From positions 1 through 51,673 of the forward strand of contig JAZDJJ010000097.1 in assembly GCA_043804035.1 (NCBI GenBank): 51,673 nucleotides of DNA, written 5' to 3'. A program made the position numbers and the translations under genes. Source of the stretch: Bacteroidota bacterium (GTDB lineage Bacteria > Bacteroidota > Bacteroidia > Palsa-948). Positions 26,458-44,116 of this stretch are shown piece after piece (within the stretch, counting starts at the first letter, position 1; every line of letters begins with the position of its first letter). A model generated the notes under the pieces. That model did not search any database. It was not told the DNA's origin and saw nothing but the letters and a program-made list of their open reading frames with translations.

Positions 26458-26572
26458 AGGACTTACGCAAGAATACTTTTTGTCTCTCGCAAAGGCGCAA
26501 AGTTCGCCAAGAAATACGAAAATACTTTGCGTTTATTAAATCTGCGAGAAATATACAAAGTGCATAAGTCCT
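26458..26572. mobile_element. 115-bp MITE (family B) with terminal inverted repeats AGGACTTACGCA / TGCATAAGTCCT
   Basis: The TIRs match 11/12. An internal long hairpin pairs TCTCGCAAAGGCGCAAAGT with ACTTTGCG...TGCGAGA. Positions 26458-26555 are 96/98 identical to 50245-50342. The terminus equals the left end of the IS at 50542. Confidence 0.8.
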
Positions 26573-26578
26573 AAAACA

Positions 26579-26872
26579 TTATTTAGTAACCGGCACTTTC
26601 TCTTTTAGTTTGTTGGCAAAATTTTTTGCTGGTTTAAAAGCAGGAATATTATGAGCAGGAATCATAATGATTGTATTACTGGACATAATTCTACCTGGCT
26701 TTGCAGCTCGCTTCTTAATAAGAAATGTTCCGAAGCCGCGCAGATAAATATTTTTTCCTTCGCACATGGAATTTTTAACTACACTTACAAATGCTTCAAT
26801 GATTGCTTTGGTTTCTTCTTTTTCAATCCCGGTCTTTTCCGAGATTTTGGTAACGATATCTGATTTAGTCAT
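26579..26872 (-). CDS. HU/IHF family DNA-binding protein
   Basis: 97 aa with the typical HU fold signature (SDIVTKISEKTGI, LRGFGTF, RNP-like arm KPGRI...IPA...PAFKP). It starts 10 bp after the mod stop. Confidence 0.85.
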   Translation of the reverse strand: MTKSDIVTKISEKTGIEKEETKAIIEAFVSVVKNSMCEGKNIYLRGFGTFLIKKRAAKPGRIMSSNTIIMIPAHNIPAFKPAKNFANKLKEKVPVTK

Positions 26873-26882
26873 AAAAAATAAT

Positions 26883-29800
26883 TTATATTATCATCACTTT
26901 CATTGTTTCCTCACCGAACTGACTTATCACTCTTACAGCAATCTTCTGTCCTTTCTTTTTTATTTCTATCGGGTGAGAGATGTGACCATACAAACGGTCA
27001 AATGCATCATCATCAATTTCAATTTTTAAAGTTTTTTCTACGTTTCGTTTTGTGCCATTTTTCGCTAACCCACTCAATCCTTTTTTCCATTTGTCAAACT
27101 CATCTTTATCTCCACCGCAGAAGAAAACTTGTTTCACCACAAAATTGCTTCCATCATAATCATCATCCACCATCCAATATGCGATGTCGTGAACATTACG
27201 GGGTTTCACTTCGTCTTTTATCGGGTCGTAAATGTCTAATCCCAGAATAGTGGTTTGTGAATAGTGGTAAGTGGTTAGTTCTTTTTGCAGAGAGAGTTCA
27301 TTAGCCCATTGAGCAACTTTGCTATCTCCACACAATTGTTTAATAGCACTTCTGAATTTTCTTTCGTCAGAAATTCCAAGTTCCGTGATAAAAGAATCAA
27401 AGTCCGTAATTCCGCTAAAGAACCTTTCGCTATCCCCAAGAACTGAATAAACTCTCCCGTTGTGTTCCGTGCCTGACCCTCCGATATGTTTGCCGGAATG
27501 CTCACCGATGCTCTTCTCATTTGAGAAGTTAATCCATACATCTCTTCTTTGGGAAAGGATGATGTATGCTGATAAATCTGTTTGGTTAAGTTTATTGATT
27601 TTTGCCAAACTATCAAGTCCTGAAAGTTTTTTAATAATGTCATAATTACATAAAATTTTAGTTGTTAGTTGTTGAGTGGTTAGTTCTTTATTGTGTGTTA
27701 TGTTATTCTTATTGCTATCCGCTAATCCCTGACCACTATCCACTGATACTAACCACCAACCACTATCCACTAATAAAATATCCGGTTCACCAATGGTAAC
27801 AAACGAAGCCGCGCTTTTTGATGGTTTCTTTTTCAATCCCTCCTGCAACAAATCATCGTGGATACGCGCTTTGGTTACTTCAAACTTTCCCATACTCGTA
27901 GTTTTATCGCTTGTGGCATCAATATCGCTTTCAAAACTAAATCCAAGAATGATTAACCATTGTGCATCTCCGCGAGAGCGACATCCTTTCACTGCTTCGT
28001 TTACTGCACTCTTGCTCACGGTTCCGAATTTAGGACCGATGTGAAAGTATGCTTTCTTCTCGCCAGTATTTCTCCACTCTCCTTTTGGAGAGGGTCCGGG
28101 GGTGAGGTAAAATCCTTCCGCATGCAAATAGGCATCAGATAATAATTCCACTCTCGAAAATGAAACACGCTCATCTTTTCTTCCGTTTTTAATTCCTGTA
28201 CTCAGCAAATGCTGTTTTATTTTTTCTGACCATTCTCCAGCATCTTCATTTATCATTTGCTCGTCATCCAATTCATCAGGACTGATTGGTTCAAAGTTTT
28301 GTAATGTTTCTACTGTGAAAGGACCACTTACACGCAAACGTTTATTATCAATTTCAGGTTTGTCGTAAAGGGTTTCTGTCGCAGGGGGTTCGTCATTTGC
28401 TAAACTTTTCAGCGTAATGTGTGGAACGGTTTTGTAAATAAATCCTTGCCTGATGTCTTGTAAGTTGGTAGTGGGTGGTGGGTAGTGGGAAGTTTTTTTC
28501 TGCTCACCATCCACTAAACATTGTTCGCTATATAATTTGTAATAAGGAAATGTTGCCGTCATTAGCCGTTGCTTTGCAATGTTCAATGCAATTCTGCTGG
28601 TATCAATGGTGAGCCATCTTCTGCCCCATTGTTCGGCAACGAATGCAGTGGTCCCGCTTCCGCAAGTAGGGTCAAGTACTAAATCGCCTGGGTCGGTGGT
28701 CATTAAGAGACAACGTTCAAGAACTTTTAGTGTTGTTTGTACCACATAAATTTTCTCTATGGAAAAAGTGCTTTGGAGGGTGTCATTCCACACATTATCA
28801 AAAGTCACATAAGGAAAATCATCTTCATATCTTTTAAATGCTAAAGTTTTATTTACTCCAATAAGACGCTTTTTTGTGTTTAATTTTTTTAATCCTTCTT
28901 TATGAGTTTTCCAATGTGTTCCCTTCGCAGGAAAATATGTTGTTCCATTTAATTCAAATGGTTGAGACCCTGTTTCTGATTCTCCTGATGACATTAAACT
29001 GGATGCTGAAAATCTTTTTTTGTAAGGAATAATGATATTTCCATTTTCATCAAAATCATTTTTCTTTAATCTTTTTTCATTTCCTTTTTCGTCTTCAATC
29101 CAACTATATGTATTATTTGTTTTGTCAGCACTTCTCTCTTTGTATATTTTTCTGTATTTAACTTCAGTTTTATTTTTAGCATACCATAAAAGATAATCAT
29201 AAGTGCTGTCAATTAATTCAGAACCAAAACCTGTGGTTTTTTTAAATGGAATTAAACTGCAAAAATTCTCACTACCAAAAACCTCATCCATAACACTACG
29301 AACGAGATGAACATTTTCCTCGCTAATCTGCACAAAGCAACTTCCGCTTTCGGTGAGAAGTTCTTTTGCGATAAGTAAACGGTCTCTTAAATATGAGAGA
29401 TAAGAATGAATTCCCAGTTCCCAAGTATCTCTGAATGCTTTTATTTGTTCGGGTTCTCCTGCAAGTGATTCATCGTTACCATCTTTCACATCACGGTTAT
29501 TTAATTTTATCTGCCAATTGCTTCCGTATTTAATTCCATAAGGAGGGTCAATATAAATGCACTGCACTTGTCCAGCCATTCCTTCGCGTTCAAGCAAACT
29601 TGCCATCACCAAATGACTGTCGCCTTGTATGAGGCGGTTTGTCCACCCATCTTGATGCTTGTAGTACTCGCTTACTTTTTCCAGTTCATCTTTCTCTAAT
29701 GCGTTTCCAAAAAGTTCGTTTACGTTAAAGAAATCCAACTGACTGTTTTTTTTTTCGGTAATCTTGTATAAGTTTTTAATCAGAATTTCGGGAGAAATAT

Positions 29801-30047
29801 GCTCGTGTCTGTAAAGAGAACGGATATCTACTCTGAGTAAATCCTCGCGGTCATCGTTTTCGTATTTGTTGAGCCAAAACAATTCGGGGTCCTGCCCGCG
29901 ATGCACGACAGGATTTTTCGGGAGTTCAATTATTTTCTTCCCGCTTTTCACTTTCGGGTTTTCATCTTCATATCCCGCTTCTTCTTTGCTCGGAATATGC
30001 ATCCGCCTGGATGATTTATGCTTGATGGATTCTACTTTTTTTGCCAT
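26883..30047 (-). CDS. mod: Type III-like restriction-modification methyltransferase (Mod, N4/N6 beta-class) carrying an internal cassette insertion
   Basis: 1054 aa. Motif IV ([15 protein letters not shown]) precedes motif I ([28 protein letters not shown]). The N-terminal extension (HIPSKEE...DPELFWLNK) and the C-terminus (LGLDIYDP...[13 protein letters not shown]...[17 protein letters not shown]) fit the Mod family that partners with Res helicases. Residues ~760-931 are encoded by the 27257-27770 cassette. Confidence 0.85.
27257..27770 (-). mobile_element. TIR-bounded mini-cassette carrying a four-helix-bundle gene, inserted inside the mod ORF
   Basis: The inverted repeat is 20/23: GTGAATAGTGGTAAGTGGTTAGT (27257-27279) against the reverse complement of ACTAACCACCAACCACTATCCAC (27748-27770). 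A perfect 15-bp direct repeat AGTGGTTAGTTCTTT lies at 27270-27284 and 27675-27689. A 12-bp direct repeat CCACTATCCACT lies at 27733-27744 and 27760-27771. Confidence 0.65.
27275..27643 (-). CDS. Four helix bundle protein (23S rRNA intervening-sequence protein / Avd family)
   Basis: 122 aa with a near-consensus family sequence: [55 protein letters not shown] and [13 protein letters not shown]. It lies fully inside the mod ORF, on the same strand in a different frame. Confidence 0.85.
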
Positions 30048-30052
30048 AGTAT

Positions 30053-30508
30053 GAACCGGGATTTTTGAGATTAAAGGATTATGGGATTGAATTTTTTATT
30101 TGTCAAACGGTGAAACTCTAAACTCTTTGCGCCAAAATTTATCAATAGCCCTATTTCCATATTGTATGCTTCCAGATAATTCAATGCCTGTGCAATGTGA
30201 ACATCTTCTAATTTGATGATTGCCTTCAGTTCAACCATTATCAGTTCTTCTACAAAAAAATCCACTCTTCTCGTTCCGATCTGCTCGTCTCTGTAAAATA
30301 CCGGCATTTCCATTTCTCTTTTAAAACTAAGTTCCTGATATGGCATCTCTATTGCCATTGCTCTTTGATAAATTACTTCCTGAAAACCATTACCAAGAGC
30401 AGAATGAACTTTCATTGCTGATGAAATTATTCTCCTCGTTATATCTTCATGTTTCATTTTATTTTTATTTTAATCTTATCATCCCGCAAATCCAATAAAT
30501 CCCAGTTC
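30053..30508 (-). mobile_element. TIR-bounded mini-cassette carrying a GxxExxY gene
   Basis: GAACCGGGATTT (30053-30064) pairs with the reverse complement of AAATCCCAGTTC (30497-30508) at 11/12. Both ends have GGGATT/GATTAAA word repeats. The element exactly fills the gap between the Bro-N/DinD-like stop (30507) and the mod start (30047). Confidence 0.55.
30071..30457 (-). CDS. GxxExxY protein (PD-(D/E)XK-like, PDDEXK_3 type)
   Basis: 128 aa with the family signature: [40 protein letters not shown] and [20 protein letters not shown]. Confidence 0.85.
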
Positions 30509-31349
30509 AGACATTTTTCTCGTTATTATTTTTTAATTGCAAAACGATTTTGGCATTTAATTCCGTAATCACCTTTTTTCCTGTTCTTGCCTCTAATTCT
30601 TTTCTTGCTACTTTGGCTACATTACCACCTTGCTTTGCTACTTTTTTACTGTCTTCAAAAGTTTTTGGTATTACCGCTGATGAAATATCTTTGGTAGATG
30701 CCTCCGCAAGCATATTCAAAATCAATTCGGTGTTGGTCATATTGTCTCTAAGATTTTCCTTTTTTAATCCTTTCAGAATTTTATATTCTTTGGTGGTTTT
30801 ATCAGCCCATACTTTGGTAATAATATCGGTAAGTGTTGCAAATTGGACGCCTTCTTTTAATCCCCTTTTTTTCCATTCATCAGTCAGTTCTTTTCGTATT
30901 TCAATACTTTTCAGCCGTTGGTTAATCCAGTTTTCAGAATAGCCCAATTGAAGATATTGCTCTAAAGCCCTGTCAATAGTTAATTCAGGGTCTTGCATTT
31001 CGTCTAATCTTTCGGCAGCAATTTGTGCCAGCCAAAGTTTAAATGGCTCTGCCTTTGGCGATGGTATGGATTGTATCAGCCGAAAAAGTTGTTCAGTATC
31101 GGCAACATCGGTCATTCTCATCTTGCCGTCTTCCGCTGCCATTTTCAACTGTCCCAATTTATGGGACAGTTCACTTCCCTCTGCTTTTAGTTTTGTTTTT
31201 AAAGCATTCCAGTATTTCCTCGGCCTGGGGCTGCTGGTTAGTATTTCAATTACATCAATAATTGATAAATACCATTTCTCCTGCTTTGCATCCCAAAGGG
31301 TTCTTACTTTTTTATCTTCAAATATTTTTATGTCATTTTGTTTTTTCAT
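30507..31349 (-). CDS. Bro-N domain / DNA-damage-inducible protein D (DinD)-like protein
   Basis: 280 aa. The N-terminus has a Bro-N-like pattern (IKIFEDKKVRTLWDAKQEKWYLSIIDVIEIL). The C-terminal half (KGLKKENLRDNMTNTELILNMLAEAST...AKQGGNVAKVARKELEARTGKKVIT) parallels the E. coli DinD C-terminal layout as I remember it. Confidence 0.65.
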   Translation of the reverse strand: MKKQNDIKIFEDKKVRTLWDAKQEKWYLSIIDVIEILTSSPRPRKYWNALKTKLKAEGSELSHKLGQLKMAAEDGKMRMTDVADTEQLFRLIQSIPSPKAEPFKLWLAQIAAERLDEMQDPELTIDRALEQYLQLGYSENWINQRLKSIEIRKELTDEWKKRGLKEGVQFATLTDIITKVWADKTTKEYKILKGLKKENLRDNMTNTELILNMLAEASTKDISSAVIPKTFEDSKKVAKQGGNVAKVARKELEARTGKKVITELNAKIVLQLKNNNEKNV

Positions 31350-31399
31350 CGTGATATTTTTTTAATTGTGACGAATTTGTCATAATTATAATTTACTTT

Positions 31400-34300
31400 T
31401 TAAAGTGAAGATATCTTTTCTGCCAATTGATTTTTAATATCGCGAATGTCGTTGGCAATTTCAATGAAATGCCATTCGGGATAATTGTATTTTTCTTTCA
31501 TCGCATTCACAGCAGGAAGCCATCGGTTTTCTACAAACCATTTTTTTTCTGCTTTCTCTTTGCTCATCCCTGTTATTTCAACCATCAGGTTTTTCGTTTT
31601 TCCATCTTTGCCTTTGCATTGTGCAACGAAGTCAGGAAAATATTGTTTGTCTTTGCCGTCCTTTATATATGGAATCGTCAATCCCAAAAATTGATTCTTT
31701 ACATAACTTTGAACTTGCTCTAATTCTTCAAATGTTTTTGCGGTGATGGCTTCCCAATTGCTGTCCATAACCACATAATTTATGTGACTCTTTTTTGTAG
31801 GATAAACTTCTTTAATCGTATTACCATTTACATATTTTGTACTGCTGAATTTATTGTAGTAATTAAAAACGGGACGGATAAATTCGGCAGTATTTTTTTC
31901 GGTGTTTATTGCGCGGACAATATGGTCCACAATTTTTTTCGGAGTTTCAAAAAACAAGAGTCGTTTGAACCGTTGGTCTTGAATATTCAGAAGAATAACT
32001 TTTTTATCGTACCATTCCTCCACAATTTTTTTTAGTTTGCTGAACTTCTGAAAATTTGCATTGCCTTCGTCATCAGAGAAATGAACCTTTATGAGTTCTT
32101 TCGTCAGCCAAAAAATAATTTCAGCATCGCGCTTTTCCAACACACTTTGAATTTGAATTTCTATTTCCTGCGGTGAAAAAGCATTTGCAAGTTTTGTTCT
32201 AATGGGAGTGGTGTCGCCACGGATTTCATAATTCTCAATGTTATTGAAGGCATATTTTATTTCCCCTTCTGAATTTCCTATTCTGTATCCGATCACATTC
32301 GGAAAAGTGATTTCAAATTTTTCTTGTCTTTCAGGAAGAGCAACGATATGAATTAAATTAACAAGTGGAGGTGGTGGTTCGGACTTTCCTCCTTTGAACA
32401 TTTTAAATGGAATTCCAATGATGTGGGCATATTCAGGAGGAAATTTCTCTACAACAATTTTTCGTTTATCATTGGTGGGCTTTCCATCTTTATCATAGCC
32501 CTGCAAAAAATAATTCATTCTCCGTAATGCTCGTCCTGCAACTTGCTCACAGAGCAACTGTGAGCCAAAAGCTCGGATTCCCATAATATGCGTTACTGTG
32601 TTTGCATCCCATCCTTCAGTGAGCATTGAAACAGAAACAACACAGCGAATGTGAGAACCTAACTTGTTTTGTTTCCCGACAGTATTAACTACTTCGCGAA
32701 GAATTTCTGCCTCAGTGATTTTTTCCGCACTTCCCTGTCCGTGAATTCTCGCATAGTCCTTTTTGAATTCTTCTATTTCAGAAGAAAATATTTTTTTGAA
32801 CTCTTCATTTATCTGGTCGCTGTTTTCCAACGCATCACTATCAATCAAAAGTGTAGGCGGTTTCTTCAATGGTTTTTTTGTAGTGGGGTCATAATTGCTG
32901 AATAATTCCTTTGCACCATCTCGCGTAATAAGTTCTCCACTTTCACTTTCAAACTCATAACCTGCAATGTATTTGTAAACCTCTTTTGAAACGGAAGTAT
33001 TATTACAAACAAGAATGAAAACAGGAGGAGCAGAAAATAAATTTGATTTTTCTTCCTGCTGTTCGCGATACCCTTTGTAATAATCTACATAGTGGTTGTA
33101 GAATTGGTCTAAAGCACCTTTCACCAAAGAAGGGAGTTGGGGAGGCAATTCCGTAAGTTTTTTTCCTTCTTCTTTTGCTTCTGATTTTTTCTTTCGCTGT
33201 CCTTTTTTCGGTAATTCATTTTTCACATGCTCGTACAAGTTGCGAAGCACCGGCATTTTCAATTCTTGCGTGTTATCGCTTTCGGGAATGAAAGGAATTT
33301 TTACAAGCCCCGATTCAATCGCTTCAATCAAACCGAAATCACTCACAGTCCACGGAAACAAACTGTATGCCTCATATCCTGAACCTTGTAAATAGTAAGG
33401 AGTTGCAGAAAGGTCATATATATTTTGCAATTTGAATCGTCTGGAAATTTCTTTTAATCCTGTAAACCAAACGGCAGCTCTTTCATTCTCATCCGATTCT
33501 TCGTTGTCGGATGTTTTGCCTTTTGATTTCGGGAGATAGCAATGATGTGCTTCATCATTCATTATGAGTAAACGAGAATCTTTTTTGAATTTACTGAGAG
33601 TCCGTTTTACGACTTGCAAAAAATCTTCGGTATTGTTAGTGTTAATTTTATTTCCATCTAAATCCACTTTTCCGTCAAACGGATTGCGCTTGTTTCCCTG
33701 CAATGTCTTTGGTTCAAATGAGTGATAGTTTGTTATTACCAATCGTGCATTAAGATTTTCTAAGCGATGTTCTAATTTTATCGGCACTAATCCGCGAATG
33801 TGATAGTAGTCCTCAATATCCATCGGGTTTTTATTTTTTGTATCAACAAATAAAACTCCCAATCTGTCTTTAATCGTAATACCGGGAGTAACAATTAAAA
33901 AGTAATCTGCAAAACGGGTATCACTTCTATATTCCTGACGATTGAAATAATGATACAAAATAAAACAACCCATTACAACTGTTTTTCCCGCACCAGTTGC
34001 CATTTTGAAAGCGATGCGAGGTAATTGGTCAGAAGAATCTGCACTTACTATTCCTTGACGAAGTTTATTAAGAATATTTTGTCCTGCATTTGATTTATCT
34101 GCAATTTCATTCAGCCATATTGCTGTTTCAACGGCTTCTCGTTGGGCAAAAAATAATTTTTTCACCGCGTGCCGTTCGGGATTATCAAACCAAAATGTGA
34201 GAAGCTCTTTTGTAACTCTTGTTGTATTTGGGTATTTTTCTTCTCTCCACTTTCCAACTTCAGCACGGCAAAGGTTAATGAGATGCGTTCCGTATTCTTC

Positions 34301-34489
34301 TGCAAAATCATTTACCTCAAACGCAGATTGTTGCTGTCCCTGACGAGAAGGAATCACTTGAATGTCGGGAGTAAAAATTCTTCTTCCTTCTCTAATGTCG
34401 TTGTAATTCAAAGAACCTTCTGCATCAGTTGCATAATGCAGAATTGGTTCTTCATAAGGACTATTAAGAATTGGATTATCAGAAGTCAT
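31400..34489 (-). CDS. res: Type III restriction enzyme Res subunit (SF2 DEAD/DEAH helicase-nuclease)
   Basis: 1029 aa with the N-terminal [11 protein letters not shown], Walker [18 protein letters not shown] box [11 protein letters not shown] and helicase motif [18 protein letters not shown]...QVAGRALRR. Confidence 0.85.
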
Positions 34490-34748: not shown

Positions 34749-37001
34749 TTATTCCACTAACGAAAAATCCAATTGTTTTTTTTTCATATCGGCTCGTTTC
34801 AAAATCACTTTTATTTTATCACCAAGCGTGAGACAGTGTTTTGTTTTTCTGCCAATTAATCTTTTATTCTTATCATCCAAAAAATAATAATCATTCGTCA
34901 GGTCTTTTATTTTCACTAACCCTTCGCAATGCGAATCAATAATCTCCACAAAAATTCCCCACTCACTCACTCCGGATATCACCGCCTCAAACTCCTCGTC
35001 CACTCTGTTCATCAGATACTGAACTTGTTTATATTTTACAGAAGCACGCTCGGCTTCTGCTGCCAATTTTTCTTGCTGAGAAGAATGTTTGCAAGCATTT
35101 TCTAATTCATTTGAAGGGGGAGAAAAAAAATCTCTTTTCTTTTTTGTCGGATGGATGTATGCAATGTTGGATGCTAATTTTCTTTCCAGCAATCTATGCA
35201 CCATCATATCCGGATACCTACGGATTGGTGAAGTGAAGTGTGTGTAATGTTTAAATCCTAATCCGTAATGTCCAATGTTATTCGTAGTGTAAATTGCTTT
35301 TGACATTGTACGGATGGCAAGCATCTCAATCATATTGGCTTCGGGCTTTCCAACAACTTCTGCTAAAATTTTATTCATAGATTCTGCAATAGTAATTTCA
35401 TTTTTCAAATTCATTTTATATCCGAATTTTTTTGCGATTTCTGCAAATGCTTTGAGTTTTTCTCCATCTGGTTTGTCGTGCACGCGATAAATGAATAATG
35501 ACTTCCTTTCAATTTCATGACACTTTGCTTCTTTTTCTATATGAGAAAGAGATGAGGAATGAGGCAGCGAACAAAATTCTGCTACTGCGCGATTTGCCAG
35601 CAGCATAAAATCCTCTATGAGTTTATTAGAGTCCTTCATCTCTTTAAAATAAACGCTTGTAGGATTTCCAAGTTCGTCTAAATGAAATTTTATTTCTAAT
35701 TTATCAAAAGCAATGCTTCCTCTTTTGAATCGTTTTTCACGAAGTTTTTTTGACAAGCGGTCAAGCACAAGCATCTCTGTTGAAAGGTATCCTTTTCCCG
35801 ATTCAATTATTTCCTGAGCTTGTTCGTAAGTGAATCTTTTATGCGAACGAATTACTGTTTTTCCGAACCATTGCTGTAGCACATTGGCATCATCATCCAT
35901 ATTAAACACAGCAGAGAAACATAATTTTTCTTCTTCGGGGCGAAGCGAACAAATTACATTGGAAAGATTTTCGGGAAGCATAGGAACAACACGATCTACA
36001 AGGTAAATGGAAGTTGCACGGGCGTATGCTTCTTTATCAAGTACAGAATTTTCTTTTACATAATGAGTAACATCCGCAATGTGAACACCAATTTCCCAAT
36101 TTCCATTTGAAAGTTTGCGAATAGAAACCGCATCGTCAAAGTCATTTGCATCAACGGGGTCTATCGTAAATGTTGTAACAGAACGAAAATCTCTGCGACT
36201 TAAAATTTCTTCTTTGGTGATTTCTGCCGAAATTTTTTCAGCTGCCTTTTCTACTTCTTTCGGAAAGTCATAAGGCAAACCATACTCGGCAAGAATGGCG
36301 TGAATTTCTGTTTCATTTTTTCCGGGGTCACCAAGTACTTTGATTATTTCTCCATCAGGATTTTTTCTCTCGTTGTACCAATGAACAACTTTTGCAATAA
36401 CTTTTTGTCCATTCTTCGCTCCAAGAATTTTATCAAATGGAATGTGAATATCAAATGGAATTTTTGAATTATCAGGAACTAAAAAAGCAAACTTATTTGA
36501 CAATTGTATTATTCCTACAAATTCTGTTTTTGAACGATGAACTATTTTTACTATTTCTCCTTCCTGTTTTTTTCCTTTTCGTCTGTGCAACAGCCGTATA
36601 CAGACCGTATCTCCATCAATAGCGCTCATCATTTTATGGGAAGAAACATAAACATCATCTTCTCTTCCTTCAATAATAATATATGCAGCACCTGATGTAA
36701 TCATATCTACTTTTCCGATAATAAGTTCACTTGATTTATGTGAAAAAACTTTTTTCTTTTTATCTGTCCCTTGTTCGTTCAGTAGATATTTTTCGTATTT
36801 GGTTTCGGTCAGTATTTTCTTTTTTGCCATGTCTTTCAACAGAAAATTTAACTTCATTTTTTGAGAGTTGTCATGAAGATTCAGGCGGGCTGCGACTTGT
36901 TTATAATTAAGTGGCTTGCCTGCATTGGAAAAAATCTGTGTTATTTCTTCGCAGCGAAGATGCTGGCAGTTTTTATTTTTATTTTCTTTATTTTTTTTCA
37001 T
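34749..37001 (-). CDS. rnr: Ribonuclease R
   Basis: 750 aa with an N-terminal wHTH and cold-shock-like region. RNB motifs are DFDDAVS, HIADVTHYV, SIYLVDRVVPMLPE and FTSPIRRYPDMMVHR. The C-terminus has an S1 domain (GVISGVSEWGIFVEI). Confidence 0.9.
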   Translation of the reverse strand: MKKNKENKNKNCQHLRCEEITQIFSNAGKPLNYKQVAARLNLHDNSQKMKLNFLLKDMAKKKILTETKYEKYLLNEQGTDKKKKVFSHKSSELIIGKVDMITSGAAYIIIEGREDDVYVSSHKMMSAIDGDTVCIRLLHRRKGKKQEGEIVKIVHRSKTEFVGIIQLSNKFAFLVPDNSKIPFDIHIPFDKILGAKNGQKVIAKVVHWYNERKNPDGEIIKVLGDPGKNETEIHAILAEYGLPYDFPKEVEKAAEKISAEITKEEILSRRDFRSVTTFTIDPVDANDFDDAVSIRKLSNGNWEIGVHIADVTHYVKENSVLDKEAYARATSIYLVDRVVPMLPENLSNVICSLRPEEEKLCFSAVFNMDDDANVLQQWFGKTVIRSHKRFTYEQAQEIIESGKGYLSTEMLVLDRLSKKLREKRFKRGSIAFDKLEIKFHLDELGNPTSVYFKEMKDSNKLIEDFMLLANRAVAEFCSLPHSSSLSHIEKEAKCHEIERKSLFIYRVHDKPDGEKLKAFAEIAKKFGYKMNLKNEITIAESMNKILAEVVGKPEANMIEMLAIRTMSKAIYTTNNIGHYGLGFKHYTHFTSPIRRYPDMMVHRLLERKLASNIAYIHPTKKKRDFFSPPSNELENACKHSSQQEKLAAEAERASVKYKQVQYLMNRVDEEFEAVISGVSEWGIFVEIIDSHCEGLVKIKDLTNDYYFLDDKNKRLIGRKTKHCLTLGDKIKVILKRADMKKKQLDFSLVE

Positions 37002-37386
37002 AAACTTGGTGAAAACAGAAAAGTATACGGGAAGATTTGTTAAATCAAAATTCTTTTAAAATCGTTTGCTGTTTGTGGCAACTTGCATCCAAATGCAATC
37101 ATCATTAAACGGCTTGGCGGTTGCTGTTCGGTGGCGATTTTACCACTGAATTTTCTACGAAGAACATAAGTTTCAATTTGCACGTCACTGTCATACGAAG
37201 CATTGCACCGCCACTGACAGCAAAGGACTGTTAGCGTTTTGTGCTTTCTTTTCCTGTCTGTCTGTATTTCAATTTTTCTGTCTTTCATTTTCTTTGTCTT
37301 TATCATGTGCGGTGGGGCATTTTTAAAATTTCTTTTCTTAGGTTGATAGATTTCTGGCTATTTTGCATTTATAGGTTGTGTGTTGA

Positions 37387-37773
37387 TTAAAATAATGATG
37401 TTTGTATACTTACATTATTTGCTTTTAAGAATTCTGCCCGTTCTCTATTCTCAAAAGTATAATAATCATTTAACCACTTTTCAGGTTCAAAGTTTTTAAA
37501 TTCATACCAGGCATGATAGTTTCTCCCATCATATTCATTTGGGATATGATTAGTCGCGACTTTTTCGGCTAAATAATCAAAGAATTTTTCGTTTACATCG
37601 GTCTTTAATATATATCTAACCTCAGTAATATCTATGAAAAAATAACCACTGTTCGGAAAATCTCCGGTAGCGGTTAGTTTTTGAAACATCCTTTCGGGTT
37701 TGCAATTATTTGCATCTTTGTATAATAAATAATAATCAGGATGTTCCCTGCTTTTGTAAAAAACGATTTCCAT
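37387..37773 (-). CDS. Hypothetical 128-aa protein coupled to the Type IIG-like enzyme
   Basis: Its ATG lies 1 nt after the upstream TAA (TAAAATG on the coding strand). It is acidic and aromatic-rich, with no signal peptide and no family I recognise. Confidence 0.6.
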   Translation of the reverse strand: MEIVFYKSREHPDYYLLYKDANNCKPERMFQKLTATGDFPNSGYFFIDITEVRYILKTDVNEKFFDYLAEKVATNHIPNEYDGRNYHAWYEFKNFEPEKWLNDYYTFENRERAEFLKANNVSIQTSLF

Positions 37774-37774
37774 T

Positions 37775-40700
37775 TTAGATCCAATTTTTAGTTAGTATAT
37801 CAATTTTTTTCATTTGGTCAATAGTAAATGCTAATGCTTTTATTATTTCTTCAATATGGTCAATTTCTTTCATAATATTTCGTTCTTTCCTCTGCTTTAA
37901 ATAATGGTCAAGCACCTGATAACCGCCAATATTAAAATCGTAAATCTCCTGCGGAACATTTTTGAAATATTGTGTATCGTTGATGTAGAGATTTCCTGAT
38001 TTCTTTTCTGATACATAATTTACCTTCACGACTAAATAATCCCCTTTTCCATTAAAATTTCCGTAAGGGTAATTGGGTTTATCATTAAGAAGATGCACCT
38101 GAATTAAATTTTCTCCTAATGCAGATAATTGTTTAAAAACTTTTTTATCTTCTATAAAAGGAATACGGGGGAAATCTATTTTCAAAAATTCAGCGTATTT
38201 GCTGCGGTAAGTCGGGCTGTGAAGAATAGCATAGATGTAAGAAAAAATTTCTTCGGGTGAAAAATGATGGTTGTAATGTTTGTTTATAAAATCACGAAAT
38301 TCTTTAGTGAGGTTTTCTATAGGTTCATATTCTTCAGTTGTAACAGTTTTTTTGCCATAAGAAACTATTGGTTCAGAAACAATATCTGATTTCTTTACAA
38401 AATTGTAAAGAGGAAAAGTATAATTACCACCTGTACAATAATGTGCATCTGTTAAACTATTTGAAACCAAAACATCACAAAATTCGCCTTGCTTTTGTAA
38501 ATTTCTTGAAGTATTTAATGCCAAATTATTCCCAAATAAAAATCCTTTCATTAATTCAAACCGAGATGTACCTCTATCAAACATTTCCTGATTATAGCAT
38601 ATAAATCTCTTATCAAAAGGGCGATAACAATATTCCTTTATAACAATTTCATTCTTCTTTATTTCTTTTAATGCAGTTTCAATTTTCCAATCTCTTGTGT
38701 CACTTAATTTGAATTGTTGGAGTGCTTCTATAAAATTTGAAGAGTTTTTAAATTTATTTATTCTCTTTTCAAGAATATCAGAATTTATGTCAACCAAAAA
38801 AGAATCTCTATGAGTGAAAATACCTAAACTACTTTTAAGAAAAATTGTAGTAACCGAATAAAAATTGTAGTATGATTCTTTTAAATTCTCGTTTTGTGCT
38901 TTGAATAAATAAAACGGGGCAGACGGCCTTATTTCTTCCCAGTCAATACTTTTAATTTCTTCCTCTAAACTCCGTTTATATTTTTCAATTCGTGTTCCCC
39001 AAAAATCAGTATGGAATATCTTTTTCTCCAATCCTTTCTTTTTAATGAAAAGCGAAACAGCAACTCCTTGTTCTATATCAAATACATTCTCATCTTTTCC
39101 ACCTTCTGGTGTTTTTTCTTTTTTTCTTGAATTTCCGTGCAAATCAATAAAATAAATATGGTCAAAAGTTTTCATTAAACTTTGCCTCATTCCTCTGAAA
39201 GTAGGGTTATCAAGAAATGAATGATTAGTAATAATCCCTACAATGCCTTGTTCAACTTTATCCATTTTATCCTGAGCAAAACGGATAAATTTTACATAGT
39301 CATCCTGCAACCATTTCGGATTTTTTTCCCCGAGTGGTTTTCCATCAACAAAATAATAATCTTTTATTTTGCCGGAAATCCACGGACCTGTATTTTTTGA
39401 ATGACCGGAATAAGGTGGATTTCCTGTAATAACTAAAATCGGTTTATCTTTTACCTTTTGTGCCAGTTTGCTTTCTTCTGTTAATGCAGGGAGAAAAGGA
39501 ATCCGTTGCTGAATATCTATAGGGTCAAGTGTATTTGTGAGAAAAATCTGCAACCGTTCTTTTGCTTGCAATTCATATCCGTTATCTTTTAAGAACTGTG
39601 AAAGTTTTAAATGAGCAATAGTATAAGGTGCAATAAGATATTCAAAGCCAAAAATATTTTTTAGAATATGCTCTTTTATCAGCAAGTCCTTTTTGCCTGA
39701 ACTCTTGGGAAGTTTGTCAAAAATTTGCTGCAGAATTTCTACTAAAAATGTTCCTGTACCGGTTGCAAAATCTAAAACGGTTACTTTATTTTTATCTCCA
39801 AGCCCATCTTTTATTTTGAAAGTGTTTACTAAAATATCATCAATGGCACGGACAATAAAATTTACAACCTGAGGTGGAGTATAATAAACTCCTTTTGCTT
39901 TTTTAAGTTTCTTGTCATAGGCGGCCAAAAAATCTTCATAGAAATAAACATAAGGGTCTTTTATGGTAAGGTCGTTAGCATCTTTTCGTTTTTTTGTAAA
40001 TGATAATGATTCGTGAATAGCCCTCAAATCAAGATTGTTCATTATTGTCAACACTTCTTCTATAATCCATTTTGTTTCGCGATATTCTTCATTGTCCAAC
40101 TCGTCAAGGAAATTCACTAATTCCCTAATCAACTCAAATGATGTCGGGATATATTTTTTTGCATTGTAAAGATTTATCGTTTGAGTATCGGCATTGAGTT
40201 TTGCCAAGAACAAACCATACACAAGATTTTGAGCAAAGGCATCCGAAAATTCGGATGTGGTGAGTTCGTGAAATACGAAAGTTCTAAATGTTTCATAGAG
40301 TTGGTATAGACGTCCTTCGGTATGTTCCTGTTCTTGTCGTTTCAGTTCGTCAAACAAAAAGTCCTTTAGTAGTTTAGCTCTTATTGCCAATGCTTCTGCT
40401 AATTTTTTTGCATCTGCAATTTCTTTCGGTGCTTGCGAAAAAAAAGATTTAATAAGTTTTTCAACTGCCGTAACTTTTGCTTTGTCAAGTTTTGTCTTTT
40501 TGTTTTCAATGTCGGAAAGAAAACAAAGTATCTCGCGCTGTTGAATTTTTCCTTCCTTAATCCAAATCCACTCAATGTAATTTGTTAAAAGGATGTTGTC
40601 GGAAAGCGCCTGATATTTTTTTATCTGGTCGGACTTTAGAATTTTATCAAGGTTTTCCTCAATTTTCTTGTTCTCTACATAGCCAATTATGCTTTCTGTG

Positions 40701-40888
40701 AATGTTATCTTAAAATCAGGAGAGCCAAATTTTCCCTCTCGTTTAGGTTCGTGCAGGATTTTAATCTTTGTCCCCGCCAAACTTTCCAATAATTGCTGAA
40801 GGTTACTTCTATGCGAATGTTCAGTAATATCAGTAATTTTTTGTGATTGAAGGGATATTAAATATTTTTCAAAATCAACCATATACAT
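37775..40888 (-). CDS. Type IIG-like fused restriction endonuclease / N6-adenine DNA methyltransferase
   Basis: 1037 aa with an N-terminal PD-ExK-like motif (GSPDFKI...IGYVENKKI), SAM motif I (VLDFATGTGTFLVEIL) and motif IV (VITGNPPYSGHS). The long C-terminal region resembles the Type ISP/YeeA-type specificity region as I recall it. There is no helicase domain. Confidence 0.75.
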   Translation of the reverse strand: MYMVDFEKYLISLQSQKITDITEHSHRSNLQQLLESLAGTKIKILHEPKREGKFGSPDFKITFTESIIGYVENKKIEENLDKILKSDQIKKYQALSDNILLTNYIEWIWIKEGKIQQREILCFLSDIENKKTKLDKAKVTAVEKLIKSFFSQAPKEIADAKKLAEALAIRAKLLKDFLFDELKRQEQEHTEGRLYQLYETFRTFVFHELTTSEFSDAFAQNLVYGLFLAKLNADTQTINLYNAKKYIPTSFELIRELVNFLDELDNEEYRETKWIIEEVLTIMNNLDLRAIHESLSFTKKRKDANDLTIKDPYVYFYEDFLAAYDKKLKKAKGVYYTPPQVVNFIVRAIDDILVNTFKIKDGLGDKNKVTVLDFATGTGTFLVEILQQIFDKLPKSSGKKDLLIKEHILKNIFGFEYLIAPYTIAHLKLSQFLKDNGYELQAKERLQIFLTNTLDPIDIQQRIPFLPALTEESKLAQKVKDKPILVITGNPPYSGHSKNTGPWISGKIKDYYFVDGKPLGEKNPKWLQDDYVKFIRFAQDKMDKVEQGIVGIITNHSFLDNPTFRGMRQSLMKTFDHIYFIDLHGNSRKKEKTPEGGKDENVFDIEQGVAVSLFIKKKGLEKKIFHTDFWGTRIEKYKRSLEEEIKSIDWEEIRPSAPFYLFKAQNENLKESYYNFYSVTTIFLKSSLGIFTHRDSFLVDINSDILEKRINKFKNSSNFIEALQQFKLSDTRDWKIETALKEIKKNEIVIKEYCYRPFDKRFICYNQEMFDRGTSRFELMKGFLFGNNLALNTSRNLQKQGEFCDVLVSNSLTDAHYCTGGNYTFPLYNFVKKSDIVSEPIVSYGKKTVTTEEYEPIENLTKEFRDFINKHYNHHFSPEEIFSYIYAILHSPTYRSKYAEFLKIDFPRIPFIEDKKVFKQLSALGENLIQVHLLNDKPNYPYGNFNGKGDYLVVKVNYVSEKKSGNLYINDTQYFKNVPQEIYDFNIGGYQVLDHYLKQRKERNIMKEIDHIEEIIKALAFTIDQMKKIDILTKNWI

Positions 40889-41088
40889 TTACTTAATTTC
40901 GGGATAAATATAAACAAAATTATTCTTGTTCAAGTGGGCGGGTTAAAAGAATTTTTTTTAATGCGAAGGGGTGGGGATTTAATTCTTTTAATTCTGTCAT
41001 TTTGTTTTTATCTTCTATTTAATTGTCAAGTTGTCTGTTTGTCTTTTCAAGCATGAACGCTAACTATGATATACAAATTATTTGTTTG

Positions 41089-41496
41089 TCAATGATTACA
41101 TTTTTTACCGCAAATAATAACAATTTCGTGGAAGCGGTCGTGAAGTTTGGCAAGTGCTGTTTTTATTTCTTCATCGCTTGTTTTGCTTTTCACTAATTTA
41201 TTTAATGTTTTTGATTCTTGATAGAGCAATTTTAATTTTTCTTTTATTGTTGGTTTGTTAAAATCCGCAGGTGGTGTGCTTTCCATCCATTCTTTTGCTT
41301 TCTGCACCATTTCTTTACTGCGTCTTTTTATTGGTTCAAGATTGCCTTCTTCAGATGGATGAAAGGTGGAAGACATTACCGAATGAAATGCTGTCTTTTC
41401 TGGCCAACTGTCATTATGCTTTGACTGTGATTTAGTTACATTAGTAAAAAGAAATGCTGCAATTACTGCAACTAAAACGAATAAATAATTTTTCAT
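41089..41496 (-). CDS. Hypothetical secreted helical protein
   Basis: 135 aa with a signal peptide (VLVAVIAAFLFTNVTKSQ) and a charged helical remainder. Confidence 0.5.
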   Translation of the reverse strand: MKNYLFVLVAVIAAFLFTNVTKSQSKHNDSWPEKTAFHSVMSSTFHPSEEGNLEPIKRRSKEMVQKAKEWMESTPPADFNKPTIKEKLKLLYQESKTLNKLVKSKTSDEEIKTALAKLHDRFHEIVIICGKKCNH

Positions 41497-41558
41497 TTTT
41501 AAAATAGTTTAAATTAAAAAAACAAATATAAAAAAAATTACGATGAAAATATTTGTTG

Positions 41559-42476
41559 TTATTTTTTAATGCTATAAATCTGTCCCACCACAAATATATC
41601 TCCTGTAAGTGTTTTGTTCCATATCTTTCCTTTGTAATCCACTCCATAAGAAGTATTCCGAAAAGAAAATTCCCAGTCAAAATTTTTATCTTTAGATTTT
41701 ACTTTGTACCCTATCACAAATGGTTCGCCAAAATCATTAATAGAAATAATCCGATTTTTATCATCAACGAAATAATAATTCTTATCGCCAAACAAAATGC
41801 ATTTGAAAACAAACGGCTTCTTTTTCCCAGAGATAGAATCAGACATGGTAAAATTTTTTATCATTACAGGATGTAATAAAGTATCACGAGTAAAAGTTAT
41901 TTCTTCCAGATGATTTGCATCTAGCCATCCTTGTGTGATGGCAGTCAGTCGTTCTTCTTTTGGCGGATGTGTTATTGGGCTACTGTTTAAGTTCACTAAA
42001 ATTATTACGGATTGAACTTCTTCTAAAGATGCTCCCATTTTATAGAGAATGAATCCTGAAAAATGGTCAGCTTCTAATTCTTCCTTGGGGTCGCGTTCAT
42101 GTTTAATTAATGTATGTCCTGAAAGATGATGTCCTGTTTCATGAGCCAGCACACTCAGCGCACCCCAGTCGGTTTTAGTTCTGTCTTTCACGCGCAGCAT
42201 AAAATCAGGATTGTAAGCAATGTATCTTTTATTGTTTTTTATATAGGCAATAGCCGTATATATATTTGTATTTTCTACAATCTGAAAATTCTGATAGAGA
42301 CCTGTATAACGGACAATATTCTCAATAGCATCATCAGCTTCTTTTTTTGAATCACTGTTGTATTCTTTCTTTATTAAACTGTCGTTATGTATTTTGTTTT
42401 TTTGTCCGAACACATTAGGAAACAGAATAAAATAATGAAAGTAAAAAATAAAGAGAAGAAAGAATTTATTTTTCAT
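41559..42476 (-). CDS. Secreted zinc metalloprotease-like protein (HExxH)
   Basis: ATG 42476 gives the signal peptide MKNKFFLLFIFYF...VFGQ, although the ORF extends to 42545. It has LSVLAHETGHHLSGH followed by ELEADHFSG, a zincin-like arrangement. Confidence 0.6.
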   Translation of the reverse strand: MKNKFFLLFIFYFHYFILFPNVFGQKNKIHNDSLIKKEYNSDSKKEADDAIENIVRYTGLYQNFQIVENTNIYTAIAYIKNNKRYIAYNPDFMLRVKDRTKTDWGALSVLAHETGHHLSGHTLIKHERDPKEELEADHFSGFILYKMGASLEEVQSVIILVNLNSSPITHPPKEERLTAITQGWLDANHLEEITFTRDTLLHPVMIKNFTMSDSISGKKKPFVFKCILFGDKNYYFVDDKNRIISINDFGEPFVIGYKVKSKDKNFDWEFSFRNTSYGVDYKGKIWNKTLTGDIFVVGQIYSIKK

Positions 42477-42547
42477 GAATCCTAATTTCAGATAATTTAT
42501 CAAAGGTAAATAGTTTTTTAGATTAGGACTTATGCCAAAAAGCACTT

Positions 42548-42967
42548 TTATCTTGAACTTAGGTCCCTTGATTTTATCTCTTGCGGATTTATTTCAAAAA
42601 CGATTTGTATGAATGATATGTTACGAATTTTTTGCAGTATAATTTTTTTTCCTAACGAAGGAATACCTTTCCGTATCATCAATAAATAATCTGCTTGCTT
42701 ATATTCAGGTAGGAAGATTTTGTTTTTTATTTTATTTACTATAAGGCGGTAATCTGCAAATAAATCTTCATCGCGAAAAAAAAATACAGGAAATCCGAAA
42801 ATGTTTTTTTGATTTTCCGAGCCGAGCATCCAATCTTCTGTTTTTTGAAATGATACCTTTAATTGATTGTTCAGTGCCCAGCACAGACGGTACGGTTTCA
42901 CAGGACAACAAATTCCAAAGAGAAAAAAATCATAGTCAGTATCAATATGAAGTTTACGTTTGGGCAC
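42548..42967 (-). CDS. IPExxxVDY family protein
   Basis: 139 aa with N-terminal DYDFFLFGICCPVKPYRLCWALN and the family-defining position LPEYKQADYLLMIR (IPExxxVDY variant). Confidence 0.7.
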   Translation of the reverse strand: MPKRKLHIDTDYDFFLFGICCPVKPYRLCWALNNQLKVSFQKTEDWMLGSENQKNIFGFPVFFFRDEDLFADYRLIVNKIKNKIFLPEYKQADYLLMIRKGIPSLGKKIILQKIRNISFIQIVFEINPQEIKSRDLSSR

Positions 42968-42970
42968 AAA

Positions 42971-43939
42971 TTAATATTTTAATTTTTCGCGAACACGTTT
43001 CAAAACTTTTGAAGCAATATTTTTCGCTTTATCAGCTCCCAATAATAATTTTTTTTCCAATACATCTTTATTGCTCATATAGTAATTATACGTTTCTTTT
43101 TCTTTTTTAAACTTTTCTATGATTAACTCAAACAATGCTTGCTTGATATGTCCATAGCCAAATCCTCCATGATGATATTTCTCCCGCATACTTTGTACTT
43201 GTTCTTTTTCGGCAAGCAATTTATATAAATTAAATACATTGCAAGTGTCCGAATTTTTAGGTTCTTCTAATTTTTTACTATCGGTTACAATACTATTGAT
43301 TGTTTTTAATAATTCTTTTTCGGGTAGGAAAATATCAATGTAATTATTGTACGATTTGCTCATTTTTTGTCCGTCAATACCGGGAATGCTCATCACTCGC
43401 TCATCAATCAGTGGTTCTGGAAGAATAAACGTTTCTCCATAAAGATGATTAAATGAACTTGCAATATCTCTGGTCATTTCCAGATGTTGCCGTTGATCTT
43501 TCCCGATAGGAACAAAATCAGCATCGTATAATAAAATATCGGATGCCATCAAAATAGGATAAGTAAAAAGTCCTGCATTTACATCTGCCATGCGGTTTGA
43601 TTTATCTTTAAACGAATGTGCGTTTGCCAGCATGGGATAAGGAGTGAAACAGGAAAGATACCAACTGAGTTCGCAAACTTCCGTTACATCTGATTGGCGG
43701 TAAAAAACATTTTTCTCTGTATCAAATCCAAAAGCAAGCCAAGCCGCCGCAACAGCATAAGTGTTGTTTTTTCTTACTTCCGAATCCTTAATAGTTGTGA
43801 GCGAATGAAAATCGGCAATGAAGAAAAATGATTCATTATCTTTCTTTTTAGAAAGTTCAATAGCGGGAATAATTGCGCCTAAAAGATTCCCTAAGTGCGG
43901 AACGCCTGTGCTTTGTATACCTGTTAATATCCGAGACAT
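42971..43939 (-). CDS. trpS: Tryptophan--tRNA ligase
   Basis: ATG 43939 gives MSRILTGIQSTGVPHLGNLLGAI (HIGH-type motif). KMSKS is present (DGQKMSKSYNN). The ORF extension to 44038 reads through a family A repeat and is rejected. Confidence 0.9.
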   Translation of the reverse strand: MSRILTGIQSTGVPHLGNLLGAIIPAIELSKKKDNESFFFIADFHSLTTIKDSEVRKNNTYAVAAAWLAFGFDTEKNVFYRQSDVTEVCELSWYLSCFTPYPMLANAHSFKDKSNRMADVNAGLFTYPILMASDILLYDADFVPIGKDQRQHLEMTRDIASSFNHLYGETFILPEPLIDERVMSIPGIDGQKMSKSYNNYIDIFLPEKELLKTINSIVTDSKKLEEPKNSDTCNVFNLYKLLAEKEQVQSMREKYHHGGFGYGHIKQALFELIIEKFKKEKETYNYYMSNKDVLEKKLLLGADKAKNIASKVLKRVREKLKY

Positions 43940-43956
43940 AAAATTTTGGTTGTTAT

Positions 43957-44115
43957 GGGCAATTCCAAAAAGTGGTTTCGTCATTGCGACATGATTCGTA
44001 TTGAGCTTGCCGAAATAAGCGAAGCGAAATGGAAGCAATCTCTAATAGCAGGGACAGAGATTGCTTCAGTCGTTCCTCCTTCGCAATGACGTTTATTTGT
44101 ATTTTTAGAACTGCC
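43957..44115. repeat. Family A palindromic MITE/REP-like element filling the methyltransferase-trpS spacer
   Basis: The outer ends are GGGCAATTCCAAAAAG... and ...TTTTTAGAACTGCC. The arms are CGTCATTGCGAC...GGAAGCAATCTCT and AGAGATTGCTTCAGTCGTTCCTCCTTCGCAATGACG. Confidence 0.85.
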
Positions 44116-44116
44116 A

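Follow-up and report, generated by a model that had tools for sequence, protein, structure and literature searches.

A probable intervening-sequence-type cassette carrying a four-helix-bundle gene lies in-frame inside a Type III methyltransferase gene of a Bacteroidota bacterium

How can a complete small gene lie inside a much larger one, in another frame of the same strand, and leave the larger gene uninterrupted? The question is raised by a contig of a Bacteroidota bacterium (JAZDJJ010000097.1, assembly GCA_043804035.1), analysed over its full 51,673 nt and referred to here as the window. On its minus strand the gene mod, encoding the methyltransferase of a Type III restriction-modification (R-M) system, encloses a gene for a four-helix-bundle (4HB) protein of the family known from intervening sequences (IVS) in 23S rRNA. 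Such 4HB 'IVS proteins' are among the commonest unexplained small genes of bacteria and are known mainly as 23S rRNA curiosities. We argue that the segment is a selfish cassette of the 23S rRNA IVS type, about 0.5 kb long and consisting of a 4HB gene within a stem of heptamer arrays, that sits inside mod and is transparent to translation, and we put the probability of this reading at roughly 0.8. The argument is built from sequence comparisons, which establish that the segment is an insertion, that its cargo is under selection, that stops are avoided in the host frame, that cassette and host phylogenies disagree and that similar embeddings recur in other methylases. The features on which it turns are as follows.

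26883..30047, minus strand: host gene mod, Type III R-M methyltransferase of 1054 codons, with no stop and open through the insert.
27243..27779, minus strand: whole cassette, an in-frame insert of 537 nt (Mod aa 757-935) that replaces the middle of a 15-residue hairpin between the motifs GEPD and GLDIYDP.
27275..27643, minus strand: cargo gene for a 122-aa 4HB protein of the 23S rRNA IVS protein family, in a frame +1 nt relative to mod.
27719..27775, minus strand: 5' arm of tandem heptamers (GTGGATA/GTGGTTG/GTGGTTA and so on; repeat families D2, I1 and I2), translatable in the Mod frame.
27245..27284, minus strand: 3' arm of reverse-complement heptamers (TAACCAC/TTACCAC/TATTCAC/AAACCAC; repeat families D11 and I1-I5).
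27660..27700, minus strand: internal second copy of the 3'-arm heptamers, AACTAACCACTCAACAACTAACAAC (direct-repeat families D1/D5).
28455..28535, minus strand: cargo-less in-frame heptamer hairpin in mod, of the same kind as the cassette arms (Mod aa ~508-531; fold z=-2.7).

An earlier note on this DNA had described a continuous mod open reading frame (ORF) of 1054 aa with a complete 122-aa 4HB gene inside it, on the same strand in another frame, and both genes are as it described them. Mod matches PF01555 at aa 161-492 and the PADLOC model MTase_III with E=3e-177, and with its N6/N4 methylase domain, its Mod profile and an adjacent Res helicase-nuclease it classifies as a Type III R-M methyltransferase; its closest homologues are from Bacteroidota. 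The cargo protein matches PF05635 over profile positions 1-106 of 106 (E=8e-41, 139 bits against a cut-off of 33.8), TIGR02436 (E=2e-38, 131 bits against 24) and NF008911 (148 bits against 137), and as a full-length match above the curated cut-offs it belongs to the PF05635/TIGR02436 family. Codon position 1 of the 4HB gene coincides with codon position 2 of Mod; relative to the 4HB gene the host frame is the -1 frame.

The segment is bracketed by inverted arms (27254-27279 and 27748-27773; 26 nt, 85% complementary), as had been proposed, although these are arrays of 7-nt repeats and not the simple terminal inverted repeats first envisaged. A 15-bp direct repeat, AGTGGTTAGTTCTT(T) at 27270 and 27675, had also been taken to bracket the ORF; the repeat is present but is a duplicated arm segment. 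As a target-site duplication it was rejected, being a second copy of the 3'-arm heptamers, and the closest relative of the window cassette (L032) is without the segment 27660-27700. When the region 27225-27800 is folded as RNA the arms are predicted to pair as a long IVS-like stem around the 4HB ORF (minimum free energy (MFE) -139.4, z=-3.6, with 0/100 shuffles as good), and this pairing is present in both the MFE and the centroid folds; the earlier suggestion of an RNA stem thus gains a predicted structure, and across loci the arms vary in sequence while keeping their complementarity. The internal copy of the 3' arm can pair with the 5' arm as well; the mini-hairpin nested in this way would lie upstream of the 4HB start (-28.1 kcal/mol and z=-2.6 when 27648-27778 is folded). 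The segment therefore has the length (0.4-0.55 kb), the terminal inverted repeats and the predicted stable stem around an ORF that characterise an IVS-like element. It does not lie in a 23S rRNA helix, and no rRNA or real Rfam match was found in 26500-31500.

A stem of this kind could also mean that the segment is chiefly an RNA-processing device, with arms serving as an RNase III substrate in the mod mRNA, where cutting would free a 4HB sub-transcript, split the mod mRNA and act as a brake or switch on Mod and the R-M system, read-through being minor. The predicted long stem fits this, as do the arm complementarity kept by differing sequences across loci and the two alternative partners of the 5' arm in the window. 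Free-standing cassettes between co-directional operon genes, described below, carry similar arms, and IVS stems of like architecture are cut by RNase III (PMC4990558). Constant cutting of the mRNA, however, gives no reason for the strict absence of stops over ~500 nt of the host frame. We hold this explanation, the chief rival, to be possible, though at clearly less than even odds, and it is compatible with a selfish, translation-transparent cassette.

Comparison with homologues identifies the segment as an insertion. Mod homologues retrieved by protein search fall into two length classes, of ~855 aa without and ~995-1074 aa with an insert, and when they are aligned the 140-215 additional residues fall precisely between the invariant motifs GEPD(I) and GLDIYDP. 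A genome scan for Mod over one genome per GTDB species gave 80 Mod loci. About 50 of these have exactly 45 nt between the motifs, encoding a 15-residue hairpin-like IDLNKKGNEVTVEIK; a few have 48-132 nt; and eight carry inserts of 459-498 nt, compared with 537 nt in the window, with a 4HB coding region 64-86% identical to that of the window. The eight come from Saprospiraceae, Prolixibacteraceae, Leptonemataceae, Leptospiraceae, Chitinophagaceae, Crocinitomicaceae, Sphingobacteriales and a metagenome-assembled genome (MAG) labelled Chryseobacterium. All insert lengths are multiples of 3, the inserts retain the first (I-D/E-L/V) and last (T/V-E/I-I-K) residues of the hairpin, and their arms reach to within 2-3 codons of the flanking motifs. 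The supposition that GEPD and GLDIYDP normally stand close together was right, 15 residues separating them in most homologues, and Mod residues ~757-935 are an insertion that most homologues do not have. Empty sites keep the ancestral hairpin sequence, outgroups included, and are therefore not deletion scars.

With the window 4HB as query, tblastn gave a near-full-length match (64-86% identity) in 9/9 insert-bearing loci, and the 4HB ORF is intact in seven of the nine, the exceptions being L032, with one stop inside the gene, and L026, with a frameshift towards the 3' end. A further scan, which took the 4HB protein as its starting point and did not depend on ORF calling, gave 80 metagenomic loci (L081-L160). 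Its closest 4HB relatives (58-66% identity) all lie in Mod at the same site, 14 of these copies having an open host frame and one a single stop, whereas the more distant relatives are free-standing. The other copies and empty sites that the earlier note had called for therefore exist: the cassette occupies the Mod site in 24 independent assemblies, next to ~50 loci with the 45-nt empty site, and the host frame is open in 22 of the 24, the exceptions being L026 and L087 (one stop in the host frame).

Two of these alleles deserve separate description. In L032 (6436-6804), the closest relative of the window cassette, the 4HB gene has an internal stop (NTT*EF) and the Mod frame is open, so the host frame can outlive the cargo. 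L026 (8265-9071), from a Sphingobacteriales MAG, is shifted by one base close to the 3' end of its 4HB gene; as a result the N-terminal part of Mod terminates, and the 4HB frame runs on into the Mod C-terminus as a fusion. This represents either a real split/fusion allele or a long-read indel error. As a further observation, the 30 nt on each side of the insertion site (gttttgtaaccattggcgaacccgat / ggcttagacatttacgaccc) are near-identical across bacterial families among L001-L054, synonymous positions included, a pattern that suggests either horizontal exchange in recent times or constraint acting on the nucleotide sequence.

Nested ORFs are usually spurious, and this prior is all that speaks for a spurious small ORF, a mis-assembly or an open frame due to coincidence. 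Against it stand the full-length Pfam match, the like arrangement in 24 independent assemblies from several phyla, and control distributions, given next, that differ strongly from the embedded copies. An artefact is already refuted by these comparative data, and we assign it a negligible probability.

The host frame is open far beyond what chance would allow. Across the 4HB gene, the eight loci with an uninterrupted mod have 0 stops in the Mod frame against 11-18 in the other shifted frame, the window 4HB ORF having 17 in the latter. A stop in the Mod frame requires a 4HB codon ending in T followed by a codon starting with AA, AG or GA; in the nine embedded copies a T-ending codon precedes such a codon at 0/283 junctions, compared with 223/798 (28%) elsewhere. 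Permutation of synonymous codons within the gene gave P=0.013 for the window copy and 0.0007-0.05 per gene overall, in agreement with the earlier judgement that so long a stop-free alternate frame is not due to chance. Free-standing 4HB genes with a G+C content (GC) below 45% have 1-15 stops in the host-equivalent frame (median 9, n=42) against 0 in the nine embedded copies. The arms behave similarly: at heptamer junctions of embedded copies NAG is TAG in 0/41 cases in the host phase, compared with 38-44% in the other two phases, and free-standing cassettes have TAG in 30% at the equivalent phase ('SG*WLV') where embedded ones read 'SGQWLV' or 'SDEWLV'. These sequence patterns show that the host frame is kept stop-free by selection, through codon choice in the gene and, in the heptamers, by replacing TAG in the host phase only. 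In free-standing 4HB genes of GC>=50% this frame has only 0-3 stops, so an open frame can arise by chance in GC-rich hosts and then be maintained. The earlier idea that the cassette was built or selected to insert silently gains support as regards a selected open frame, and a same-clade in-frame copy in another gene (below) fits it too; 'built' may amount to a frame open by chance and maintained afterwards.

Of the two overlapping frames it is the 4HB frame that is conserved as protein. Among the 24 embedded copies, nucleotide differences average 0.28 at the first, 0.23 at the second and 0.54 at the third codon position of the 4HB gene, and two copies share on average 64.5% of their amino acids when read in the 4HB frame but 38.7% when read in the Mod frame. 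All of the 276 pairs (276/276) are more alike in the 4HB frame, so that the cargo is the protein under selection, and the 4HB ORF is intact in 22/24 Mod-embedded copies. On this comparative evidence the 4HB reading frame is shown to be under purifying selection at the protein level, and the translation in the Mod frame appears as a passenger peptide constrained mainly against stops; this peptide (aa 757-935) has no Pfam match.

The trees of cassette and host differ. Mod-embedded 4HBs form one clade in the 4HB tree; in the tree of Mod flanks, insert-bearing alleles are scattered among empty ones, L001 with an insert nesting among the near-identical empty L029, L025, L016 and L018, and L002 being sister to L033. 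These trees show that the cassette phylogeny is incongruent with that of the Mod flanks. Conservation of the flanks at the nucleotide level means that recombination between alleles could carry the insert.

Outside Mod, too, the cassette occurs as a general unit. With few exceptions the 4HB genes sampled in L081-L160, embedded or free-standing, are flanked by inverted tandem-heptamer arrays whose heptamer is specific to the locus and usually begins with AG (AGTGGTT, AGGATAT, AGTTTCT, AGGCACA and others), the two arms staying complementary. Free-standing cassettes lie between co-directional housekeeping genes such as moxR/DUF58, parE/parC-like, two epimerases, recJ/nadD and dcd/dut, and an association of the family with defence genes only was rejected on these grounds. 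An exhaustive search of representatives with the host-frame peptide gave 32 matches, most of them Mod fragments, and insert-bearing Mods are probably hidden behind insert-free representatives by clustering at 50% identity; a profile search of a word-indexed protein database with host-frame peptides returned two short fragments only and is no census. The exhaustive search nevertheless yielded two non-Mod hosts, the DrmMI-like P0124 and the Type ISP enzyme P0150. In the first (L161/P0124), a DrmMI/type IIG-like methylase, the 4HB is 74% identical to that of the window, nests in the Mod clade and has the same phase. Unrelated 4HB lineages are embedded in-frame in a PglX of the bacteriophage exclusion (BREX) system (L115, PADLOC PglX E=0), an Eco57I-like methylase (L149), a DrmMI/PglX-like methylase (L151) and the C-terminal domain of a Type ISP enzyme (L162/P0150, GC 34%). 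The frame used by the host is in every embedding found the -1 frame of the cargo gene. The gene-in-gene arrangement in a defence gene thus stands as the earlier note described it, but not as an isolated case: there is a widespread clade, together with independent events in R-M, BREX and methylases of the type found in the defence island system associated with restriction-modification (DISARM). Two of these copies, L151:4001-4357 and L161:1257-1619, are unrelated 4HBs (46% and 74% identical to that of the window) at the same site of homologous DrmMI/type IIG-like methylases, between an S-G-S-x-Y-T-P block and motif I (VCDPAxGSG), which suggests a site preference or very few permissive sites. 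No second copy of the cassette was found in the 51.7-kb window.

Could the cassette instead be an immobile fossil, inserted once in an ancient mod, inherited vertically, lost repeatedly and made patchy by whole-allele transfer or recombination? The Mod-embedded 4HBs are monophyletic, their deep subclades follow Mod subfamilies (GLDIYDP type versus GFDYYN/GVDVFHP type), and the conserved flanks favour recombination between alleles. A single ancient insertion does not account, however, for a cassette nested in the Mod clade that sits in a different gene family (L161), nor for the nesting of L001 among near-identical empty alleles, the ancestral hairpin kept at empty sites including those of outgroups, or the at least 4 further independent embeddings in other genes. 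We consider it unlikely.

That every in-frame host found to date is a DNA methylase or an R-M enzyme (Type III Mod, PglX, DrmMI/type IIG-like and Type ISP), and that the cassette persists across deep divergence of Mod subfamilies, might speak for a domesticated module, in which the insert is a new Mod domain or the 4HB protein a dedicated partner or regulator of R-M, selected for a benefit to the host. Most Mod homologues manage without the insert, however, cassettes with related 4HB genes are located between housekeeping genes that have no link to defence, none of the PADLOC defence models matches the 4HB protein, and some copies have a damaged 4HB gene while Mod is open. What makes domestication as a Mod domain in particular unlikely is the poor conservation of the host-frame peptide, which has a mean identity of 39%, below that of the 4HB frame throughout, and matches no Pfam family. 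Overall we find such domestication distinctly improbable.

A selfish cassette transparent to translation remains the reading that we favour, and it would work as follows. Ribosomes would read through the cassette and make Mod as a single chain, in which ~150-180 residues form a passenger loop under little constraint, with two beta strands encoded by the arms holding it out. The 4HB protein would be made by internal initiation at its own ATG, and RNase III-type cleavage of the stem might free a 4HB sub-transcript. Among mod alleles the cassette would spread either when the highly conserved flanks undergo homologous recombination or by some form of hairpin-dependent insertion, with occasional jumps to other genes, and only in-phase, stop-free copies in permissive loops would survive. 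An open -1 frame would be easily gained in GC-rich hosts and then maintained after transfer to AT-rich hosts such as the window organism. Judging by the sequence pattern and weakly predicted strands, the stretch between GEPD and GLDIYDP is probably a short hairpin on the protein surface, with the site at its tip.

Several points weigh against this account. That the insert is translated through, that the 4HB protein is made and that the larger Mod is active we infer from the sequences. No sigma-70-like promoter was found upstream of the 4HB start in a scan that is blind to Bacteroidota-type promoters. The cassette has no recombinase or transposase, no target-site duplication was found, and recombination between mod alleles could by itself be enough to explain the patchy distribution among them. 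The trees are neighbour-joining trees of short alignments and carry no support values, and the damaged 4HB genes of L032 and L026 mean that selection on the cargo is not absolute. An AlphaFold2 model of the whole Mod, built with 21 sequences, has a mean predicted local distance difference test (pLDDT) score of 44, too poor to place the insert. The only moderately confident features of the insert region are two long strands at aa 751-769 and 924-941, which correspond to the arms; they are compatible with an extended hairpin holding out a disordered loop, a hint only.

A bolder proposal, which we put forward tentatively and think rather doubtful as a whole, is that heptamer-stem/4HB cassettes are a distinct class of translation-transparent mobile element, pre-adapted by a -1 frame free of stops through gene and arms and by a length divisible by 3 to colonise defence methylases (Type III Mod, BREX PglX, DISARM/type IIG, Type ISP) and leave them functional. 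The heptamer-repeat stem, in RNA or DNA form, would be the target of the cassette's own Avd-like 4HB protein, which would thereby either help the element to spread or modulate the enzyme of the host, for instance if the mod mRNA is split in an RNase III-dependent way.

Heptamer-derived sequence is found elsewhere in mod and its homologues. The cargo-less hairpin at 28455-28535 is missing from most homologues, only the window and P0002 having residues there in the Mod alignment, and the L115 PglX, like the window Mod, also carries cargo-less in-frame heptamer hairpins. A small palindromic in-frame insert at 28060-28125 (minus strand) forms a short GC hairpin encoding GPSPKGEW, its fold not being significant (z=-0.1). 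Some Mods (P0010 and P0073, alignment columns 101-134) have three or four in-frame tandem copies of QYSVGSS near the N-terminus, a unit of 21 nt or three heptamers, and others have EWRVNSKTGEREFLTSNH-type inserts at the same place, making further heptamer-derived coding inserts in the Mod family.

The operon around mod, and the genes beyond it, comprise the following.

30071-30457, minus strand: GxxExxY/PDDEXK_3 gene, between the Bro-N gene and mod.
30507-31349, minus strand: Bro-N gene of the Type III operon.
31400..34489, minus strand: res subunit of the same Type III system, with a PF04851 ResIII helicase and a C-terminal endonuclease domain.
34749-37001, minus strand: RNase R gene, between res and the DNA-modification genes.
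37775-40888, minus strand: Type ISP-like methylase with a specificity domain.
44117-45391, minus strand: a further N6/N4 methylase.

The Type III R-M operon on the minus strand is thus made up of res, Bro-N, GxxExxY/PDDEXK_3 and mod. The neighbours of mod are res, Bro-N, GxxExxY and HU, with no reverse transcriptase among those scanned with Pfam. GxxExxY is the other family classically found in 23S rRNA IVS; the gene is bracketed by a 24-nt inverted repeat, 79% complementary (region 30049-30512, minus strand), and a homologous GxxExxY gene lies directly upstream of Mod in L007, L013 and L014 also. The operon seems to hold a second IVS-type cassette in this gene. Further along, 34749-45391 (minus strand) is rich in DNA-modification genes, and the small ORFs at 37387-37773 and 41089-41496 (minus strand) have no Pfam match.

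For mobile elements, overlapping genes and defence systems alike, these cassettes are of general relevance. The combination of heptamer stem and 4HB gene is a general unit found both between operon genes and inside ORFs, and a whole gene can evidently live in the overlapping frame of another with the host protein presumably still readable, its clean and measurable signature being that the passenger frame avoids stops. Nesting of this kind is met repeatedly in methylases that belong to several defence systems, in Bacteroidota, Spirochaetota, the Chlorobi/Ignavibacteria group and others, and the nested 4HB genes are normally missed by gene callers. The sites of the cassettes mark loops in large R-M enzymes that tolerate insertions of ~180 residues, and the role of IVS proteins and stems, together with the movement of the element, becomes testable on a defined substrate. 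The literature that we found covers IVS work and the in-frame palindromic elements of Rickettsia; we found no description of 4HB/IVS cassettes in-frame in protein genes or of heptamer arms, in a coverage that is incomplete and no proof of novelty. An in-frame nested cassette of the IVS type with an overlapping gene does not seem to have been described before.

Among known systems the closest are the IVS of 23S rRNA. The Coxiella IVS is 428-444 nt long with a 28-bp terminal stem, an S23p (4HB) ORF and excision by RNase III (PMC4990558), and elements in both Coxiella and Leptospira are cut out by this enzyme (PMC4990558). Like the window cassette, 23S rRNA IVS are of ~0.43-0.54 kb, with a stem of ~26-28 bp enclosing one PF05635 ORF, and are sporadic, horizontally spread and without a transposase. 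They sit in helix 9, 25 or 45 of 23S rRNA, whereas the cassette sits in a protein-coding gene, where translation of the host would have to pass through the element and the host frame avoids stops. Its arms, unlike theirs, are tandem heptamer arrays, and RNase III excision, documented for the IVS, is a conjecture for the cassette.

Avd, the accessory protein of diversity-generating retroelements (DGRs), belongs to a homologous four-helix-bundle fold family (PF22296 E=2e-8, NF033474 E=1e-7), and the homology of Avd and 4HB proteins is discussed in PMC10053308. As an identity for the cargo DGR Avd was rejected, PF22296 scoring 35 bits against a cut-off of 40 and NF033474 32 against 80, with no reverse transcriptase in the tested neighbours. 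Inteins and group I/II introns resemble the cassette as selfish, silent insertions in an essential or selected ORF that recur at one site of homologous genes, but its silence would come from plain read-through of a stop-free frame and not from splicing; an intein or intron was rejected, there being no Hint/splicing domain or ribozyme (no host-frame Pfam match, no Rfam match) and the peptide being only 39% conserved and secondary to the frame that overlaps it. Of the features of insertion sequences and MITEs (miniature transposable elements with inverted repeats), inverted arms are present, a transposase is missing from the cassette and the apparent direct repeat is the internal arm copy.

Palindromic elements of Rickettsia are reportedly inserted in-frame in protein genes, as Ogata and colleagues are said to have described in 2000. 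Like the cassette, these and MITE-like repeats are palindromic selfish DNA tolerated in ORFs, adding a surface peptide and being polymorphic in their insertion between orthologues. The window cassette shares with them a length that is a multiple of 3, an open host frame and presence or absence among orthologues, with translation the presumed outcome, and the cargo-less heptamer hairpins of the window Mod and the L115 PglX resemble this class. The Rickettsia elements are ~100-150 nt long and themselves non-coding, whereas the window cassette carries a complete, selected gene in an overlapping frame. It combines a selfish element of the IVS type with the in-frame tolerance of the Rickettsia palindromic elements, and carries an overlapping gene.

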